Assembly (NCBI GenBank): GCA_963676565.1
Contig: OY781089.1
Coordinates: 3,072,001-3,136,000 of the forward strand
Direction of reading: 5' to 3'
Length of the DNA: 64,000 nt
DNA from: Halarcobacter sp.
Lineage (GTDB): Bacteria; Campylobacterota; Campylobacteria; Campylobacterales; Arcobacteraceae
Numbering within the stretch: position 1 is the first letter of the stretch; every line of letters begins with the position of its first letter. Below are positions 31,663 to 40,579 of this stretch, piece by piece. A program made the position numbers and the translations under genes. The notes beneath the pieces are model-generated. The model was given only the letters and a program-made list of their open reading frames with translations, made no database searches and was not told where the DNA came from.

Positions 31663-33330
31663 TTAAATAGGAACTTTTACAGTAAAACATGCTCCTTTTT
31701 CAGTGTTTTTAACTCCAATATAACCATTCATATTTGTTTCAATTATATTTTTTGACATATAAAGCCCTATTCCTGTACCTTGAGATTTATGTTTTGTTGT
31801 AAAATATGGTTCAAAGACTCTATCTATTATCTCTTTTTCAATTCCCCCTGCATTATCTTCTATTTTAACTATATGACACTCTTTGCCACTTTTTATCTCG
31901 ATTACTATTTCAGGATTTTTAATTTTTCTAAGGATTAAAACATCTTTTGCATTATTTAAAATATTTAATATAACTTGTGAGTATTCATTTTCGTATCCAT
32001 TAACTTCTGCATCATCAATCACATTCATTGATAGTTTTATATTATGATAATTTAAAGAACTTTTAATAATGAAGTGAGCTTTTTCACAAGTATATTTTAC
32101 ATTAAAGATTTTCTTTGCCTCTTCTGGTCTAAAAAAGTTTTGAAAATCAGATATAGTTTGGGTCATATATAAAGTCAAAGCATCAGCTTCATCTATTTTT
32201 TCTTCTAAATACTCTTTTGTAAATTCATTAAATTCATATGTTGCAAGCATATTCATATGAATAGCAGAAATCTCACTTAAAGGTTGTCTCCATTGATGTG
32301 CAATATTTCCAATCATCTCTCCCATTGAGGCTAGTTTTGATTGCTGTATTAGAATCTGTTCTTGTTCCATTCTTTTATCTATCTCTTCTTGAATTTTATA
32401 TTCTAGGTTATCTATCATATCATTCATCATAATTTTTAATTCATTTAAAATTGCACTATCAGATTTTTTTGTAAGTCTCATACCAAGGTTTCCACCTTTT
32501 ATATTTTTTAAAACTTCTGTAGCATCTTTTATTAGAATCTCATTCTTTTTAATATTATCTTCAACATTTTGGAAATTTTGATTAATAGATTCTGCCATTT
32601 GGAAAAACTCATCTTTAGAGTGAATTATAATTTTTTGTGCTTTATCCTTTTTATAATTTAGATACTCAAAAAATTCATTTAAACCCCTTTGAACAATATT
32701 TAAAGAAGTTATAATATTGTTTGAAACAAGCCAACCTGCAATAATAGAAAATAGCATTACAACAAGAAAATAAATAGCCACTTCTATTATCAATGATTTT
32801 GATTCTTCAACAGCTTTCATATAAGAATTTTCTACTTCATTTAAAAGTTCACTTTGAATAGAAAGTAAATGATTCATCAAAAGGTCAAAATGTTTTTTAT
32901 CTTTTGTTGAAACATTTATATATGCCCCTTCTTCAAAGCCTCTTTTTAAATATGCTTGTGTTCTTTCAATAACCTTTTTATAGTTATTCCACAAAATAGA
33001 TGTTTTTTTATTTTCTATTTTAATTTTCAAAAAAGAGTTATCAAGTTTTTCTACTAAAAGATTTATATCTTTTTGAATTATTGATCTTTGTTTTTTATTC
33101 GGAGCAATTACAATTGACTGATTTATTCCTCTTAATTTATATAGTGGAGCTATTATATTATCTTGCAAAAGTAAAGTTTTTTCAGATTGAATATAAACAT
33201 CTTTTAATCTATCTTTTGCTTTTTCACTTGTATTTATTGAAATCCATCCAAAAATAAAAACAGAACAACATAAAATTATAAAAAGAATACTCAATTTTGC
33301 TTTGATATTAAATCTATCAAACAGTTTCAT
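31663..33330 (-). CDS. Sensor histidine kinase (periplasmic four-helix sensor, HAMP-like domains)
   Basis: Two TMs; IAHQWRQPL, NAKD, EDNAGG, FTTK, GTGIGL. Confidence 0.9.
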   Translation of the reverse strand: MKLFDRFNIKAKLSILFIILCCSVFIFGWISINTSEKAKDRLKDVYIQSEKTLLLQDNIIAPLYKLRGINQSIVIAPNKKQRSIIQKDINLLVEKLDNSFLKIKIENKKTSILWNNYKKVIERTQAYLKRGFEEGAYINVSTKDKKHFDLLMNHLLSIQSELLNEVENSYMKAVEESKSLIIEVAIYFLVVMLFSIIAGWLVSNNIITSLNIVQRGLNEFFEYLNYKKDKAQKIIIHSKDEFFQMAESINQNFQNVEDNIKKNEILIKDATEVLKNIKGGNLGMRLTKKSDSAILNELKIMMNDMIDNLEYKIQEEIDKRMEQEQILIQQSKLASMGEMIGNIAHQWRQPLSEISAIHMNMLATYEFNEFTKEYLEEKIDEADALTLYMTQTISDFQNFFRPEEAKKIFNVKYTCEKAHFIIKSSLNYHNIKLSMNVIDDAEVNGYENEYSQVILNILNNAKDVLILRKIKNPEIVIEIKSGKECHIVKIEDNAGGIEKEIIDRVFEPYFTTKHKSQGTGIGLYMSKNIIETNMNGYIGVKNTEKGACFTVKVPI

Positions 33331-34973
33331 TATTTAATCCTTAGGGGTACTATAGGTGTATGAAAATCGATAGGATACTTTTTCTCTTCTCTTACGGACC
33401 AATGGTTTTTCGTAATTTTTGTTTTCCATAGTGGAGCAATCCCTCCTGCATATGGTTCATATATAACTTCTTTATTAACAGCAATTACTTTATTATGAGA
33501 AGGAACTCTTAATGTATAAGCCATATCTCTAGCTCTATTTAAAATTTTAGAAACAATATCTTCATAACTTGAACTATTTATTTTTGTAGTAAAAAATTCA
33601 TCTATGTACTCTTTCATAAACTTGTCATTTGGAATAATAGACCAAGGAGAGTCATTTTCATAAATAAACATTACTGTCCAAGGGTTTTGGTAATACCAAT
33701 CATCATCACCCCAAGCTAACAAATCCCAACTTTTGGTATTTTTTGAAGATCTTGTATTTAAAAGTTGCTCATAAATATCTTTTTCACTAGTGGTAACATC
33801 ATAAACTAATTTCACACCATATTTTTCAAGTTGATACTCTATTCCTCTCCATAAAAACATAAACCTATCTTGAGTAAAAACATTTAATACTAATCCATTT
33901 AATAATTGATGTTTTTTTTCTTCTGACATGGTATGAGTTTTATACTCATTTTTTTTTGCAATCTCTTTTACCACTCTAAAGTTTATTGATGTAGCAAAAG
34001 GGGATATTGTTCCTTCTTTTTTATAAATAAAATTTAAAATATTTTCTTGATTTATTGCTTCATTTAACGCTAATCTTATCTCTTTATTTGCTAGTTTTTT
34101 ATTTCCATTTATAAGATTGAAAAATATAATAATATTATTGGTTGATTCTTTTATCACAAGCTTTGAATATTTTGACATCACAGCTTCAATTTTTTTATCA
34201 AAAGGGATTGGGGAAACATCAAGTCTACCCTCATAATTTACTACATTCTCAAAAGCCTCTTCTGTATTAAGTTGAGTATATACTGTAACTTTTTTTATTT
34301 TTGGATACTGTTTATCCCAATAATATGGGTTTGCTTCTAAAACTATCTTTTCTGTTTGTTTTTTACCAACAGCATAACCACTTTTTAATATATAAGGTCC
34401 CATCCCATAAGGTCCAGGTTCTTGAGTTCCAGTTTCAGTCTCTTCAGCTTTTGTTGGATACTTCTTTAAATACTCATCTGTAAAGAAAAAAACCCTTGCA
34501 AGGTCTGTAAAAAAAAGTTCATATTTTTGTTTCAATTCTATTTTAAGTCTATATTCATCCACTTTACTTATCTCAAAATCAATTTTATCTACATTTGAAA
34601 ATAAAAAAGGATTCTTTTTAAAATGATTAAGGTTGTTTATTGCAGAATCAATTGTAAAGGGCGTCCCATCTTGAAATTTTAGATTTCTTTTTATTTCAAA
34701 TATATAAGTATAGTCATCAACTCTTTCATGTGACTTTGCTAAATCATAAACCCAACCTCTTTCATTATCATCAGAACGAATTAAACCTGCATTTGTATTT
34801 TTTGAAATATAAATATAAGGGATACTTGGGAAAAAAACTTTTATATGAGATTTTGGATGCATATATTCAATGGCATTTGAAGAAGAAGTATCTTCTTTAA
34901 AAATCTCATCATCAAGAGCATTTGAATAAGAAAAAGCTAGAATAGCAACTAAAATAAAAAATGTTCTAACCAA
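33330..34973 (-). CDS. Family-5 solute-binding protein embedded in a two-component operon
   Basis: Signal peptide; LA.S.E..D..TY.F.I....KFQDGTP, G.GPY.L, LEANP.YW, IR.ALN.AIN; no permease or ATPase genes adjacent. Confidence 0.85.
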   Translation of the reverse strand: MVRTFFILVAILAFSYSNALDDEIFKEDTSSSNAIEYMHPKSHIKVFFPSIPYIYISKNTNAGLIRSDDNERGWVYDLAKSHERVDDYTYIFEIKRNLKFQDGTPFTIDSAINNLNHFKKNPFLFSNVDKIDFEISKVDEYRLKIELKQKYELFFTDLARVFFFTDEYLKKYPTKAEETETGTQEPGPYGMGPYILKSGYAVGKKQTEKIVLEANPYYWDKQYPKIKKVTVYTQLNTEEAFENVVNYEGRLDVSPIPFDKKIEAVMSKYSKLVIKESTNNIIIFFNLINGNKKLANKEIRLALNEAINQENILNFIYKKEGTISPFATSINFRVVKEIAKKNEYKTHTMSEEKKHQLLNGLVLNVFTQDRFMFLWRGIEYQLEKYGVKLVYDVTTSEKDIYEQLLNTRSSKNTKSWDLLAWGDDDWYYQNPWTVMFIYENDSPWSIIPNDKFMKEYIDEFFTTKINSSSYEDIVSKILNRARDMAYTLRVPSHNKVIAVNKEVIYEPYAGGIAPLWKTKITKNHWSVREEKKYPIDFHTPIVPLRIK

Positions 34974-35649
34974 TTTTATATCCTATCCCAGAAAGATTAT
35001 TTATTATATTTGTAGGTAGTTTTTTTCTTAAATGTAAAACTACAGAGCGTAAAGCACTATCTGTCATAACAAGTTCTTGCCAAACCTTATCTTGTAATTC
35101 ATCATAGGTAACAACTCTATTTTGATTTTGCATTAGTAACTCTATAAATCTAATCTCTTTTTTATTTAAAACTATTATCTCACCTTTGTATTTTAGTTTT
35201 TTAATACCAAAATCGTAAGTATAGTTTTCATCACTTTCTAATTTAATTACTTCATTAATATTTAATGATTCAATACACTTTCCTAAAGTTTCAAAAAGCA
35301 TTTTTGTAGTTATTGGTTTTACAAGATATTTTTCCATATGTAACTCTACTGCTTCTAATAAATATTTCTTTTCTGTATGTGCAGTAATCATAACTACAGG
35401 AGTGGTTTTATCGACTTTTCTTACTTCTTTTATAAACGTGATCCCATCCATTAAAGGCATATGTATATCACTTAAAATAATATCAGGTTTTTTTTCAAAA
35501 TAAAGGTCTAAAGCTTCTTTTCCATTTGTTGCTTCATAGACTTCTTTTGAGTAATATCTAAGTGTTTTTAAAATGTTTTTTCGTATACCATCTTCATCTT
35601 CTGCATAAAGAATTCTCAAAGGTTTTAATTGTAATTTTACGTTATTCAA
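34966..35649 (-). CDS. OmpR-family response regulator
   Basis: AEDE, LSDIHMP, ITA, LVKP, winged helix GIGY; TTG start after AGGAG. Confidence 0.93.
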   Translation of the reverse strand: MNNVKLQLKPLRILYAEDEDGIRKNILKTLRYYSKEVYEATNGKEALDLYFEKKPDIILSDIHMPLMDGITFIKEVRKVDKTTPVVMITAHTEKKYLLEAVELHMEKYLVKPITTKMLFETLGKCIESLNINEVIKLESDENYTYDFGIKKLKYKGEIIVLNKKEIRFIELLMQNQNRVVTYDELQDKVWQELVMTDSALRSVVLHLRKKLPTNIINNLSGIGYKIG

Positions 35650-35819: not shown

Positions 35820-36107
35820 ATGCGAAAAATATTATTTACGGCATTAATTTTATTTCAAGCTTCTATGTTTGCTGATGCAGCTACTGCATTTAAAGCTTGT
35901 GTAGCTTGTCATGGAGCAAATGGAGAAAAAGTGGCACTTGGTAAAAGTAAAATCATCAAAGACATGAGTAAAGAAGATTTCATTAAAGCAATGAAAGGTT
36001 ATAAAGATGGAACTTATGGAGGACAACTAAAAGGTATGATGAAAGCTCAGGCTGCTAGATTAAATGATTCTGATATTGAAGCAATTGCAGAGATGATAAC
36101 AAAATAG
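35820..36107 (+). CDS. Monoheme cytochrome c553-like protein
   Basis: Signal peptide, CVACHG, YK.GTYGG..KGMM (axial Met region). Confidence 0.93.
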   Translation: MRKILFTALILFQASMFADAATAFKACVACHGANGEKVALGKSKIIKDMSKEDFIKAMKGYKDGTYGGQLKGMMKAQAARLNDSDIEAIAEMITK

Positions 36108-36120
36108 AAAGTAGGAAAAA

Positions 36121-36678
36121 ATGGAAGCAGTTAAAAGTAATGATTTTTCACAAAGACTAGAAAAGGTATTAATCTTAAAAAATATATTTTCAAGTAAAAA
36201 TGAAGATGAACTATTCAAAGCTTTTTCAGAATTAAATAGTGGTTTAGAAGTTGATAAAACAACTCTTGAATCAGATTTCAATCGATACTTTATAGGTCCG
36301 GATGCTCCAATAGCTCCTCCATATTCATCGGTGTATATTGATAAAACTGATTCACTTATGACAGAAACTACTCAAAAAGTAAGAGATCTTTATGAAATCA
36401 TGGGCTTTAAGAATAAGTTAAAAAATTCTATTCCTGAAGACTTTTTAGGTTTAGAGTTGGATGCTTATTATCAACTACTTTTCATTGAAGAGAAAACTAA
36501 CTATTTATCTGAGATTAGATGTTATTTTTTATTTGAACATATTAAAGTTTGGATTTACGACTTTATAGAGGCTGTGTTATCAAATAAAGATAATCCTTCT
36601 GATGCAATAAATTATATTGTTCAGGAATTAAAATTGTTTTTTGACAACGAATTTAAATACGAAGGAGATTTAAAATGA
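36121..36678 (+). CDS. TorD/DmsD-family redox enzyme maturation chaperone
   Basis: F.GP....APPYSSVY and PED.LGLEL motifs; lies directly before a Tat molybdoenzyme. Confidence 0.88.
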   Translation: MEAVKSNDFSQRLEKVLILKNIFSSKNEDELFKAFSELNSGLEVDKTTLESDFNRYFIGPDAPIAPPYSSVYIDKTDSLMTETTQKVRDLYEIMGFKNKLKNSIPEDFLGLELDAYYQLLFIEEKTNYLSEIRCYFLFEHIKVWIYDFIEAVLSNKDNPSDAINYIVQELKLFFDNEFKYEGDLK

Positions 36679-38954
36679 ATTACGTAAAAGAAAATGTAGA
36701 CTCAATTTTAAATGATGGAGTAAACAGACGTGGGTTTTTAAAAGGACTAGCTGCCTGTGGTGCATTATCTATGTTTCCAGGTGGAAACTTATTGGCTAAT
36801 GAATCTTTAAATACAAAGATTCCTTATTTAGGTAAAAAAAGTTATACAACTTTTAGAAATGCCTGTCCAAGAAACTGTTATGACACTTGTAGTATCAAAA
36901 CATTTGTAAAAGATGGTGTAATGCAGTTTATTGAAGGTGCAACAGAATCAACATATACAAGAGGTGGTTGTTGTGTAAAAGGAAACTCATATGTAAGAAG
37001 AGTTTATTCTCCTAAAAGAATCAAATACCCAATGTTACAAGTAGGTGGTAAAGGTTCTGGTTCTTGGAAAAGAATCTCTTGGGATGAAGCTATTAGCAGA
37101 ATTGGTGACAAACTTCTAAGTATGAAAAAAGAAGATGGACATATGCTAGGCGCTGCACTTACAAAATACTCTGGAAACTTTGGTATTACTCATTACGGTG
37201 TTGAAGGAATGTTTAGTTCTATTGGATATACAACAAGATTTGGTGGAACTCCATGTTGGCCAGCAGGTATTGATGCACAAAATTTTGATACAGGTAATAT
37301 GTGGTGTAATGACCCAGAAGAAATGAAAGATAGTAAATATATCATTCTTTGGGGAGTTAATCCAGCTTCAAACTCTGTTCATAGTATGAAATATATCTAT
37401 GAAGCAAAAAGAAAAGGAGCTAAAGTTATTGTAATTGATCCATTATTTACAGAAACTGCTTCTAAAGTAAATGAATATTATCAAGTTAAAGCTGGAAGTG
37501 ATGGCTTATTAGCTTTAGCAATGGCAAAAATCATTGTTGAAAATAACTTGCATGACAAAAAATGGCTTAAGAAAAACTCTCACGGATATGATAAATTTGA
37601 AAAATATTTAAAAACTATATCAGTTAAAGAAGCTTCTGAAGTAAGTGGTCTTTCAGAAAAAATGATAAAAGAGATTGCACTAGGTTTTGCAAAAGCAGAT
37701 CCTGCAACAGTATGGATTGGATATGGTATTCAAAGACATACAAATGGTGGTTCTATGGTTAGAGCTATTGATGCACTAGTAGCAGTTACTGGAAATGTTG
37801 GTAAATATGCAGGTGGAGCTAGATATGGACACTTAAATACTTGGGGATTTAATTACAATGCAATGACAAATCCTAAACCAGAAGGAAGTATTGGTTATAC
37901 AGGTTCAGCTAAATCTATGGGTGATATTCATGGTGGTGGAGAAGGTGATCATAAAGTTAAATATTCTGATAGATATCTAAATATTAACAAAACAGCTGAA
38001 GGTATTTTAACAGCAACAGATCCAAAAATCAAACTTTTATGGGTTGCATGTAAAAACCCATTAGCTCAAGATTTTGATAGAAATAAAATTATTAAAGCAT
38101 TTAATACTGTTGATATGATAGTTGTTGCTGATCAATTCTTTAACGAAACTACAAAATGGGCAGATATTGTTCTTCCTGTAACAACGCAGTTTGAAGAGTA
38201 TGATGTAAATGTGTCTTATTGGCACTATTGGTTAAGCTTAAATGAACAAGCAATTAAACCACTTCATGAAGTAAAATCTGACCTTGAAATTGCATCATTA
38301 TTATCTAAATATATGAATAAAAAAGAGGCAGGTTCTTGTACTTTCCCTCAAAAATATGATAGTAAAAAGTTAACTATTAAAGAGTTTAACAAAGGTATAT
38401 ATGATCAATTTGGAATTAAATCTTGGAAAGAATTACAAGATGGTCCAAAAAAAGCTAAAGCAGTAATTCCTTTTGCTGATGGAAAATTTAATACTCCAAG
38501 TGGTAAATTTGAATTCTATTCTGAAAAAGCTGTAGAGTACGGACACACTGCATTACCTGAATATTTAGAAGTTAGAAAACCTTATGATAAATATAGATTA
38601 ACAACTCTACACTGTAGATATTCTTTACATTCACAATTCCAAAATTTAGATTGGATGGAAGATATTCATCCTGAACCATTTGTTTATGTGAATCCAGAAG
38701 ATGCAGAATACAAAAGAATTAAAACTGGAGATACTGTAGCAGTATTTAATAAACAAGGTCTTTTAAGACTTAAAGCAAAAGTTACTGATAATACACCAGT
38801 TGGAACATTTATGATGTATGAACAGTGGTACAACAATAGTATTTATAATGTAAATGAATTAGTTGATGATACATCTTCTGACATGGGATCATTTAAAACA
38901 GGTGCACCTGGAATTGCACTACAAGATACTTATGTAAATATAAGAAAAGTATAA
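36675..38954 (+). CDS. Tat-exported Mo/W-bisPGD oxidoreductase catalytic subunit (DMSO reductase family), substrate unknown
   Basis: NRRGFLK Tat motif; CPRNCYDTC...CVKG Fe-S motif; WKRISWDEA; WG.NP; ADIVLP; TPSGKFEF; HSQF; NP.DA. Confidence 0.93.
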   Translation: MNYVKENVDSILNDGVNRRGFLKGLAACGALSMFPGGNLLANESLNTKIPYLGKKSYTTFRNACPRNCYDTCSIKTFVKDGVMQFIEGATESTYTRGGCCVKGNSYVRRVYSPKRIKYPMLQVGGKGSGSWKRISWDEAISRIGDKLLSMKKEDGHMLGAALTKYSGNFGITHYGVEGMFSSIGYTTRFGGTPCWPAGIDAQNFDTGNMWCNDPEEMKDSKYIILWGVNPASNSVHSMKYIYEAKRKGAKVIVIDPLFTETASKVNEYYQVKAGSDGLLALAMAKIIVENNLHDKKWLKKNSHGYDKFEKYLKTISVKEASEVSGLSEKMIKEIALGFAKADPATVWIGYGIQRHTNGGSMVRAIDALVAVTGNVGKYAGGARYGHLNTWGFNYNAMTNPKPEGSIGYTGSAKSMGDIHGGGEGDHKVKYSDRYLNINKTAEGILTATDPKIKLLWVACKNPLAQDFDRNKIIKAFNTVDMIVVADQFFNETTKWADIVLPVTTQFEEYDVNVSYWHYWLSLNEQAIKPLHEVKSDLEIASLLSKYMNKKEAGSCTFPQKYDSKKLTIKEFNKGIYDQFGIKSWKELQDGPKKAKAVIPFADGKFNTPSGKFEFYSEKAVEYGHTALPEYLEVRKPYDKYRLTTLHCRYSLHSQFQNLDWMEDIHPEPFVYVNPEDAEYKRIKTGDTVAVFNKQGLLRLKAKVTDNTPVGTFMMYEQWYNNSIYNVNELVDDTSSDMGSFKTGAPGIALQDTYVNIRKV

Positions 38955-38964
38955 GGAGGAAGTT

Positions 38965-39600
38965 ATGCAAAAAGCTTTTTTAGTAGATAGTGAAAAATGT
39001 TTAGGGTGTAATACTTGTGCAATGGCATGTAAAAACCAATATCACCAAGATAAAGGGATATTATGGAGAAAAGTAAGAGAAATTGGCCATGAAGACTATA
39101 GAACAGATCAAAATAATATTTTACCTACTCTAGTATGGTATGCAAAACCTGAAAAAGTAGATGTTCCTGCTGAAAGATACTATGCATCAATTGCATGTAA
39201 TCACTGTGAAGAACCAGCTTGTGTTGCTATATGTCCTGTTCAGGCTCATACAAAAGATCCAGAAACAGGTATTTGTAAACACGATCAAAGTTTATGTATT
39301 GGATGTGGAGGATGTGTAAAAGCATGTCCATTTGGTGCATCTAAATTCAATGAAAGATTAGGAAAAGCAGAAAAATGTAGTATGTGTTGGGAAAGACAAG
39401 CTGATGGTAAACTACCTGCTTGTGTTCAATCTTGTCCAGTAGAAGCTATTAAACTTATCGATATTCATGATGAAAAATATGCAAATATAGGAGAAAAACA
39501 TCCTTTAGGACTTGATTATGCGGTTGAAGCTCCAACAAGACCAAGTACAAGATTTATTAAACCAAAAATGCCGGATAATATATATCGATTAGAAGGATGA
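38965..39600 (+). CDS. 4x[4Fe-4S] electron-transfer subunit (DmsB-like)
   Basis: CLGCNTCAMAC, CNHCEEPAC...CP, CIGCGGCVKACP, CSMC...PACVQSCP. Confidence 0.95.
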   Translation: MQKAFLVDSEKCLGCNTCAMACKNQYHQDKGILWRKVREIGHEDYRTDQNNILPTLVWYAKPEKVDVPAERYYASIACNHCEEPACVAICPVQAHTKDPETGICKHDQSLCIGCGGCVKACPFGASKFNERLGKAEKCSMCWERQADGKLPACVQSCPVEAIKLIDIHDEKYANIGEKHPLGLDYAVEAPTRPSTRFIKPKMPDNIYRLEG

Positions 39601-39617
39601 TAAGATAAGGATATATA

Positions 39618-40028
39618 ATGAAAATTATATTCACACTTCTTTTTCTTTTTTTAACATTACTTTTTGGCGAGCAAGACTCGCCAAAAGTATGTCCTATAAA
39701 TAAAAAAGATTTTAACTACTACGCTAATCAGAAAGTTGATGTTTCAATTCCTTTAGAATTTTCTTTAGGAAAAAATGAGATAAAAATAAAATTGAGTGAA
39801 ACAGAGTATCCATCAGGATATAATGTTGTAGCTTTTATTGATGTGGAAGTGAGTTCATCAAAAGTTGAACCTGAAGTAGAAAATGGTATTCCAATTACTT
39901 CTATAGAGTTTTTTGAAAAAGGAAAATATGAATTACAATTAAATGTAAATATCATATATAGAAGTAGCTGAGCAGGTGTACAAGTTGCTAGTTTAGCAAG
40001 ACAAAAAATCTCCGTAGCTATTAAATAA
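39618..40028 (+). CDS. Putative exported selenoprotein (136 aa, UGA at codon 118); 117 aa if the TGA is a true stop
   Basis: AAGGA RBS and signal peptide; the frame continues after TGA 39969-39971 as AGVQVASLARQKISVAIK to TAA 40026-40028; SECIS-like hairpin downstream of the TGA; terminator starts at the TAA. Confidence 0.68.
39985..39999 (+). promoter_or_regulatory. Candidate bacterial SECIS element
   Basis: TTGCTA-GTT-TAGCAA perfect stem; loop begins with GU, 19 nt after the UGA. Confidence 0.62.
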
Positions 40029-40055
40029 AATAAGCCCTATAAAATGGGCTTATTT
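40028..40055 (+). terminator. Intrinsic terminator of the molybdoenzyme operon
   Basis: AAATAAGCCC / GGGCTTATTT 10-bp inverted repeat. Confidence 0.75.
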
Positions 40056-40528
40056 AATTGATAGGGATTATACCTCACAAACTTTACATAATTTTTTATA
40101 CCTTCAAATATACCACCATCAAGATTAATCACCCTTTCATAACCTTTTGACTTTAAGAGTTTAGATACTTTAATTGATTCATTACCATTTTGAGAAAGTA
40201 TTGCAAATTCACTATTTTTATCAATAATAGTATTTAAATATCTTAGAAATTGGCTTTCGTCAAACCTTCTATCTTTACGATAAAAAGTTAATAATATACT
40301 ATGTTTTAAAACAGCTGTTCTTTTCAAGTCTTGTTCATTTCTAATGTCAATGATTGGTATATCTTTGAATAAAAAATCATTAGATAATTTTGCATGTTTT
40401 ACCTTTGTAGTATCCACTTCTAATAATTTAAGAACAAACACTACTGAAACCACTATTCCTAAAAAAATTGAAATTGTTACTACTATTAACTTTTTTGCTA
40501 AACCTAAGGTTTCATTATTATTTTCCAT
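40037..40528 (-). CDS. Membrane-anchored rhodanese-like protein lacking the catalytic Cys
   Basis: IIDIR and NLDGG rhodanese motifs; active-site loop reads LSQNGNES; start placed at ATG 40528. Confidence 0.75.
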   Translation of the reverse strand: MENNNETLGLAKKLIVVTISIFLGIVVSVVFVLKLLEVDTTKVKHAKLSNDFLFKDIPIIDIRNEQDLKRTAVLKHSILLTFYRKDRRFDESQFLRYLNTIIDKNSEFAILSQNGNESIKVSKLLKSKGYERVINLDGGIFEGIKNYVKFVRYNPYQLNKPIL

Positions 40529-40545
40529 TTTAATTCCATTATTGT

Positions 40546-40579
40546 GTGCCAAGCTAAGGGAGGGAGAGAAACTTGGCAC
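40546..40579. other. GC-rich hairpin with an 18-nt purine/pyrimidine-skewed loop
   Basis: GTGCCAAG / CTTGGCAC; loop CTAAGGGAGGGAGAGAAA on the + strand. Confidence 0.6.

Follow-up and report, generated by a model that had tools for sequence, protein, structure and literature searches.

SoxY, the sulfur carrier of the Sox system, is a small periplasmic immunoglobulin (Ig)-like β-sandwich whose one reactive cysteine (Cys), flanked by small residues, carries substrate covalently to its partners, among them the molybdoenzyme SoxCD. This Cys sits in a flexible C-terminal GGCGG tail, and the protein, paired with SoxZ as SoxYZ, serves an enzyme of the sulfite-oxidase type. Sud of Wolinella succinogenes is a periplasmic polysulfide-sulfur transferase with a single Cys and a rhodanese fold, and hands its chalcogen substrate to a Cys-ligated reductase of the molybdenum-bis(pyranopterin guanine dinucleotide) (Mo-bisPGD) type. 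To our knowledge, Sud has no form with selenocysteine (Sec), and we know of no small Cys or Sec protein that accompanies the DmsABC/YnfEFGH-type reductases of S- and N-oxides or selenate. Here we analyzed a small gene with an in-frame TGA (39618..40028, + strand), the last gene of a molybdoenzyme operon of Halarcobacter sp., within a stretch of 64,000 nt (assembly GCA_963676565.1, contig OY781089.1, positions 3,072,001 to 3,136,000), hereafter the window, whose numbering applies wherever no contig or locus is named. An earlier note on this DNA had put the gene forward as an unannotated periplasmic selenoprotein. Sequence comparison indicates that it is most probably a genuine, previously unrecognised selenoprotein gene, its TGA at 39969 almost certainly being read as Sec (probability roughly 0.88). 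The recoding itself is standard; neither the protein nor the enzyme that it would serve has been characterised.

Reading frame, homologues and decoding machinery

The mechanical open reading frame (ORF) 39618-39971 (+) closes at the TGA of codon 118 (39969-39971, +), the candidate Sec codon. Past this triplet the frame stays open for 18 codons, AGVQVASLARQKISVAIK, up to the TAA at 40026-40028, and the gene of 136 codons plus TAA is delimited by this frame, by orthologues with TGA, by homologues with Cys and by the predicted fold. The read-through product (P0001, 136 residues) contains Cys only at C25, in a VCP motif, and residue 118 is the Sec position. By eye, a signal peptide covers approximately residues 1-17 (MK, a hydrophobic run, then G-E-Q), and it lacks a twin arginine. 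As a chance control, all TGA-ending mechanical ORFs of at least 100 amino acids (aa) in the whole genome were considered (n = 466). An in-frame extension of at least 15 codons occurred in 122 of them, a comparable hairpin in 13, and both together in four, namely fdhA, the 39618 gene and two others. These two (G000:C1:2163699 (+) and C1:1379415 (-)) combine an extension with a G-loop hairpin and look like chance; the former is the C-terminus of a 703-aa ORF with CPxC motifs. Over the 54 nt after the TGA, frame 0 was open in 16/16 sequences, versus 6/16 and 5/16 for the other two frames. Both TGA and hairpin were unchanged in strain-level DNA contigs, and two metatranscriptome runs yielded RNA contigs of a relative, covering only 39016-39048 and 39464-39636.

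An in-frame TGA followed by the conserved tail was present in all 20 Sec-form DNAs (the window, five from the same genus, nine from Sulfurospirillum and five metagenome contigs), and Cys occupies the position in homologues. A six-frame search of 184 genomes of the taxonomic family recovered the five same-genus orthologues (70-74% identity), each with 136 codons and a single TGA at the same codon. These read ...YRSS*AGVQVASLARQ.I...., where the asterisk marks the TGA, with TAA as the final stop in four and TAG in one (L025). A sixth same-genus genome, G107, encodes a 131-residue homologue (L028, 35% identity) that runs without a stop, ...YKNSCGGIQFSNLL..., and has Cys at the UGA column in the motif NSCGG. 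Four weak matches in other genera came from the same search (E 0.001-0.006), one of them (L030) with three stops. Extending the search to 401 genomes of the phylum added nine forms from one genus of another family, all with TGA, which read ...MYKGS*GGILVASLANTKIRFTAKKPK and were assigned to Sulfurospirillum from database names of near-identical proteins. At the Sulfurospirillum loci L034-L041, the mechanical ORF of the small gene begins 20-55 codons ahead of a conserved Met, within the end of the Fe-S gene; translation probably starts at that internal Met, just before the signal peptide. The five metagenome contigs represent three distinct sequences, all with TGA and tail.

Protein-level searches retrieved both truncated and Cys-bearing relatives. 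Among 12 word-index matches, ten were 117 aa long and ended one residue before the Sec column; the other two were a 136-aa protein with W118 (a code-4 gene call) and a 95-aa fragment. An exhaustive search of a representative library gave 22 matches, 19 of which were retained; P0021, P0022 and P0029, long multi-domain proteins in which only repeated weak stretches match, were left out of the alignment. Most retained relatives (13/19) were full-length with Cys at the column, in the motif [KR][ST]SC[GA]G, and the remaining 6/19 ended one residue earlier. The conserved tail downstream of the Sec/Cys column comprises 18-22 residues, and the invariant columns are P65, G67, P92, G102, S117 and the Sec/Cys column itself.

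The host genome (complete, 3.34 Mb) encodes the machinery for Sec decoding. It contains selB (298.8 bits against a cut-off of 242) and selA (562.4 bits), with the tRNA-Sec gene (selC) adjoining selA, and two selD paralogues (G000:C1:1992297-1993211 (+) and 1958723-1959640 (-)), each with one in-frame TGA. Two fdhA genes with in-frame TGA lie at C1:1974644 and C1:1980511. This makes at least five selenoprotein genes in the genome, the 39618 gene included. We also found selA in 10/10 other carrier genomes tested (nine Sec-form genomes and G107). On these results the observation of the earlier note is confirmed and its reading supported: its coordinates for TGA, TAA and hairpin, the 19-nt spacing and the length of 136 aa all match the sequence, the VCP Cys that it placed near the mature N-terminus is the sole Cys besides position 118, and the signal peptide agrees on by-eye judgement only. 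Homologues carry TGA or Cys at position 118 and conserve the downstream residues, and selA, selB, selC and selD, for which the note had advised checking, are all in the genome.

The hairpin downstream of the UGA codon

A hairpin at 39985..39999 (+) has the properties of a Sec insertion sequence (SECIS), with a 6-bp stem UUGCUA/UAGCAA closed by a GUU loop (TTGCTA 39985-39990, GTT 39991-39993, TAGCAA 39994-39999); a spacer of 19 nt separates the UGA from the loop G. The rules for bacterial SECIS elements (bSECIS), as given in the legend of Fig. 2 of PMC13188914, are a loop of 3-9 nt, a stem of 4-16 bp, a G in the first two loop positions, a spacing of 16-37 nt and a minimum free energy (MFE) of ≤-7.5 kcal/mol. 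With its 3-nt loop, 6-bp stem and 19-nt spacing, the hairpin falls within all the limits listed in that legend; its MFE is -7.6 kcal/mol in the window and -8.6 to -11.6 kcal/mol in the orthologues. The SECIS of selD1 in the same genome is of similar design (7-bp stem, GGG triloop, 17 nt past the UGA). No hairpin was found at the corresponding position of the Cys homologue. RNAfold also drew a long outer stem around the UGA in the window, which was dropped as it is not retained in the orthologues.

Conservation in the gene is concentrated on this element. Pairwise nucleotide identity among the six same-genus genes, the window included, was 74-85%, and their longest invariant run (25 nt, 39981..40005, +, positions 364-388 of the coding sequence) covers the hairpin, the runner-up being 8 nt long. 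All third-codon positions were invariant in codons 122-129 (8/8), compared with 49/137 over the whole gene. For a wider alignment we used 16 of the 20 Sec-form DNAs, with L037, L039, L056 and L057 left out as duplicates or near-duplicates. Every stem cell was paired (96/96), five of the pairs being invariant, and the loop was G-U-N in every sequence. The fifth stem pair was U-A in seven sequences, A-U in seven and C-G in two, and was never broken; its changes fall on the wobble positions of an Ala codon and a Leu/Met codon. None of the shuffled alignments attained the observed pairing, and slid registers did not come close. From the alignment, RNAalifold predicted the 39985-39999 hairpin and nothing else. 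A SECIS-type hairpin had been suggested from the single sequence, and to this the analysis adds agreement with the bSECIS limits and compensatory change in the alignment.

Predicted fold, operon and neighbouring molybdoenzyme

AlphaFold2, run with a 23-row alignment, predicted an Ig-like β-sandwich with a mean predicted local distance difference test (pLDDT) of 92.4. The model consists of the signal helix, a short helix (29-36) and seven strands, with lower confidence for residues 11-30 (pLDDT 71-77). Strands 102-115 and 121-135 form a hairpin that places S116-S117-U118-A119-G120 at its turn; since strand 121-135 pairs with 102-115, a 117-residue product would lack a core strand. The model thereby reproduces the β-rich fold, the SSUAG turn and the extension as last strand that had been inferred from the sequence. 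Structural searches returned generic relatives: Foldseek found nothing but Ig/PKD-like rows in the PDB (best E 1.3e-3), and a VIA-align comparison with 48,161 chains reached a best Z of 7.5 and brought up Ig-like domains of filamin and glycosidases, with SoxY not among the matches listed. The Ig-like fold seen in the model is generic and provides no functional lead.

The family likewise has no match among named families. P0001 hit no Pfam or NCBIfam family at E ≤0.01, the 23 members (P0001 and 22 relatives) gave only scattered single matches to unrelated Pfam/NCBIfam models at E ≤1, and none of them matched PF07610 or the other inventory families at E ≤1. A PDB profile search of the family alignment produced two chance-level matches (E 0.78 and 0.92), and in the protein atlas the Cys form P0016 fell only in unnamed clusters (0.80-0.82, under the counting level). 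Table 1 of PMC13188914, an inventory of May 2026, lists 119 prokaryotic selenoprotein families, 116/119 with a profile or domain identifier (the exceptions being two GenBank-annotated rows and one with a Conserved Domain Database identifier only), and none of the rows examined fits the family of the 39618 gene by motif or fold. Full-text literature searches, passages of individual papers and a term search of the text of the BSepDB paper yielded no description of the family. In RefSeq, GenBank and UniRef, the Sulfurospirillum copies are hypothetical proteins of 122-123 aa. The remark in the earlier note that it recognised no named selenoprotein family holds for Pfam, NCBIfam and the rows examined of the 2026 inventory (PMC13188914). 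On these sequence searches we regard this as a previously unrecognised selenoprotein family, of which the databases appear to carry only truncated hypothetical proteins.

The operon begins with a small exported c-type cytochrome (95 aa, 35820..36107, +, from a profile scan), followed by a TorD/DmsD-type chaperone (185 aa, 36121..36678, +), the Mo-bisPGD catalytic subunit (759 aa, 36675..38954, +) with a twin-arginine translocation (TAT) signal and a TPCWPAG motif, and a DmsB-like 4Fe-4S subunit (211 aa, 38965..39600, +), the chaperone and the 4Fe-4S subunit being identified by Pfam/NCBIfam scans. We scanned the module neighbourhoods at four further loci (L042, L044, L046 and L048). In Sulfurospirillum (L042) and in G107 (L044) we found the set again, with chaperone, Mo subunit, Fe-S subunit and small gene as well as the regulator trio. 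Cys forms occur at nine Desulfobacterota loci, and at the two whose neighbours were scanned (L046 and L048) a LuxR-type regulator, a chaperone and a Mo subunit of 756-757 aa lie beside the small gene, with an Fe-S subunit and a DmsC anchor also found at L046. Across the four loci, identity to the Mo subunit of the window was 89, 74.5, 59 and 59%; the 89% is that of G107, and the two Desulfobacterota proteins are 59% identical over their full length. Synteny of the small gene with a predicted chaperone, a Mo-bisPGD subunit of 756-759 aa and a 4Fe-4S subunit, as annotated from sequence, extends over two phyla. A complex prediction for the G107 Mo subunit (42-759) with its Cys-form small protein (17-131) scored 0.00 against a mark of 0.32, which speaks neither for nor against binding.

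The Mo subunit reached no curated NCBIfam cut-off (dmsA_ynfE 280/777.7 bits, PhsA 234.6/694, ArrA 102.8/1600, YnfF 193/1650), and its best solved relatives scored only ~160 bits. In alignments, the Cys of TPCWPAG lies a few residues from the Sec ligand of formate dehydrogenase. Its public names are generic ('molybdopterin-dependent oxidoreductase', 'DMSO reductase' and 'MopB_3 family', the last being the UniRef name of a 75%-identical copy). A word-index search found 1541 relatives at E ≤1e-50 among 7998 candidates scored, in Sulfurospirillum, Seleniivibrio, Geovibrio, Desulfuromusa, Desulfovibrio-like genera and others.

Upstream and divergent from the operon, a regulator set spans 31663..35649 (-), comprising a response regulator (34966..35649, -), an SBP_bac_5-type periplasmic binding protein (33330..34973, -) and a histidine kinase (31663..33330, -). 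The SBP_bac_5 protein lies between response regulator and kinase in three lineages, and the trio looks like a three-component sensor; the ligand of this binding protein could reveal the substrate of the molybdoenzyme. Downstream, a 10-bp hairpin between convergent genes (40028..40055, no strand assigned), likely a terminator, starts at the TAA. It had been described as the operon terminator; its position at the TAA stands, and since the T-run rule holds for the minus strand alone, it is better described as a hairpin that the two convergent genes share. The convergent ORF (40037-40579, -) has its stop codon inside this hairpin and encodes a rhodanese domain (PF00581, E 2.8e-8) with an N-terminal membrane helix; by eye it has no Cys and would therefore be a catalytically inactive rhodanese. 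In Sulfurospirillum, a fusion of ferredoxin-thioredoxin-reductase β-chain and rhodanese (L042 5799-6542, -) lies directly upstream of the operon and on the strand opposite to it, so that rhodanese-type genes adjoin the module in two lineages (the window and L042).

Proposed function and comparison with known systems

We propose that the hairpin 19 nt past UGA118 recruits SelB with Sec-tRNA(Sec), whereupon the ribosome would insert Sec and proceed through 18 codons to the TAA at 40026. The product would be exported unfolded via the Sec (general secretory) pathway and fold into an Ig-like β-sandwich with S-S-U-A-G at the tip of its last hairpin, leaving the selenol exposed, and would serve the neighbouring molybdoenzyme. 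As to function, we infer that the selenol is the working group, with a covalent carrier as first choice, then a redox couple, then a fixed subunit. Provided that the gene encodes a selenoprotein, our tentative preference, drawn by analogy with SoxY and Sud, is that it may shuttle a covalently bound chalcogen or metalloid species, as substrate or product, to or from the Mo site. More doubtful is the specific form of this idea, in which the enzyme would reduce not a free solute but a protein-bound adduct, a chalcogen or metalloid species held on Sec118 (on Cys in other lineages).

Several observations weigh against this account. The SECIS is minimal, and its MFE in the window sits on the threshold of the bSECIS rules. 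Only one of six stem pairs varies, by approximately three lineage-level changes, so that covariation rests on one column, itself made up of codon wobble positions. For the five invariant pairs, the conserved peptide VASLA is a further constraint, and P0016, a Cys form, has kept this peptide too. This metagenome protein (141 aa) holds IQVASLAKQ, the SECIS-encoding peptide of the Sec forms, and reflects either a recent Sec-to-Cys conversion or selection on the peptide itself. Regarding the partnership, at both Desulfobacterota loci with scanned neighbours (2/9), the small gene lies outside the enzyme operon and is oriented divergently from it. Identity to the proteins of the window is 35% for the small protein of G107 and 89% for its Mo subunit (L044 7317-10641 versus window 36675-40028); the partnership therefore tolerates large change or replacement, and the comparison suggests that the G107 small gene may have been replaced or may have evolved very fast after a Sec-to-Cys change. 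Finally, an N-terminal Cys is missing in 4/11 complete Cys forms (P0017, P0031, P0033 and P0034).

This last point bears most on the redox alternatives. Selenenylsulfide cycling of Sec118 with Cys25 is possible for a selenoprotein of this kind, if on the unlikely side, and its stricter version, a self-contained periplasmic thiol/selenol oxidoreductase that alternates between a Cys25-Sec118 selenenylsulfide and the reduced pair, whether for reduction of a small oxidant or for electron transfer, and carries no bound substrate, is unlikely. A Cys near the mature N-terminus (x-C-P or x-C-S) occurs in every Sec form read and in 7/11 complete Cys forms, and most known selenoproteins, as presented in the text of PMC13188914, are redox enzymes in which Sec has a partner Cys. 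Against this, the four Cys forms without an N-terminal Cys weaken the redox-couple reading, the two residues lie 93 positions from each other in a protein with neither a UxxC/CxxU motif nor a thioredoxin fold, and the model is of lower confidence around Cys25 (residues 11-30). The pairing of Sec with the N-terminal Cys, raised as a possibility in the earlier note, is supported only in part as an obligatory link: the Cys occurs in all Sec forms read but not in these four Cys forms.

A fixed third subunit of the molybdoenzyme, in which Sec or Cys would coordinate a metal centre or give the substrate funnel its shape, is improbable. Strict synteny with the A and B subunits in two phyla would suit such a role, as would the Campylobacterota operons, which have no DmsC-type anchor and leave room for another third subunit. 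Yet the Mo subunit retains its own conserved Cys (TPCWPAG), and the small protein diverges far faster than its neighbour, as the G107 pair illustrates. Its Sec-type signal also differs from the TAT signal of the Mo subunit; the two proteins therefore cross the membrane separately. That the TGA is a true stop after 117 residues, with the downstream conservation due to an RNA element such as a regulatory or terminator-associated hairpin, is highly improbable, since the public gene calls that all stop there (10/12 word-index matches of 117 aa, RefSeq copies of 122-123 aa), the small hairpin and the chance frequency of long open extensions (122/466) are set against 13 full-length relatives and L028 that read through with Cys and align along the entire tail, a frame 0 open in 16/16 sequences as compared with 5-6/16 for the others, a β-strand pattern that persists in the tail while the nucleotides diverge, a truncated protein that in the model would lose the partner strand of 102-115, and an operon hairpin that begins at the TAA rather than at the TGA.

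Read as a selenoprotein, the 39618 gene adds a family of unusual make-up, combining export by the general secretory pathway, an Ig-like fold and Sec on a hairpin tip, that is truncated throughout current annotation, the RefSeq Sulfurospirillum copies included. Gene callers and selenoprotein predictors could adopt the family together with its very small SECIS (6-bp stem, GUN triloop). It also offers a handle on a large, phylogenetically broad molybdoenzyme clade; a Cys/Sec partner of its own suggests that this clade handles sulfur, selenium or metalloids. If the carrier mechanism is true, substrate would be delivered in a way new to the dimethyl sulfoxide (DMSO)-reductase superfamily, and the protein would be the first carrier-type selenoprotein.

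Compared with small bacterial selenoproteins (thioredoxin-fold proteins and the DUF1573 'UGC' type), the product is similarly short, with a single Sec and Cys-bearing homologues, and differs in having no UxxC/CxxU motif and no thioredoxin fold. It resembles Sud as a periplasmic protein of Campylobacterota beside a Cys-type Mo-bisPGD enzyme, whereas, unlike Sud and the rhodanese transferases, P0001 has no PF00581 match and its predicted fold is Ig-like. With SoxY it would share the small periplasmic Ig-like β-sandwich, a generic fold, and one candidate reactive residue between small residues. Pfam/NCBIfam scans detected no Sox families, and of the SoxY hallmarks we saw no GGCGG arm, no TAT signal and no SoxZ-like partner; in contrast to SoxY, Sec/Cys lies in a β-hairpin turn 18-22 residues from the C-terminus and the enzyme is of the Mo-bisPGD type. 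The A and B subunits and the chaperone match the DmsA/YnfE, DmsB and DmsD/TorD models, and the Desulfobacterota versions add DmsC, whereas the Mo subunit scores far under every curated cut-off of the DmsABC, YnfEFGH, PhsABC and ArrAB systems. Like FdhA/FdnG, the product would be an exported selenoprotein linked to molybdenum chemistry and made by the same SelB-dependent recoding, with the SECIS just past the UGA, and FdhA is encoded in the same genome. In FdhA, however, Sec is the Mo ligand of the catalytic subunit, whereas here Sec would reside on a separate 13-kDa protein and the catalytic subunit has Cys.

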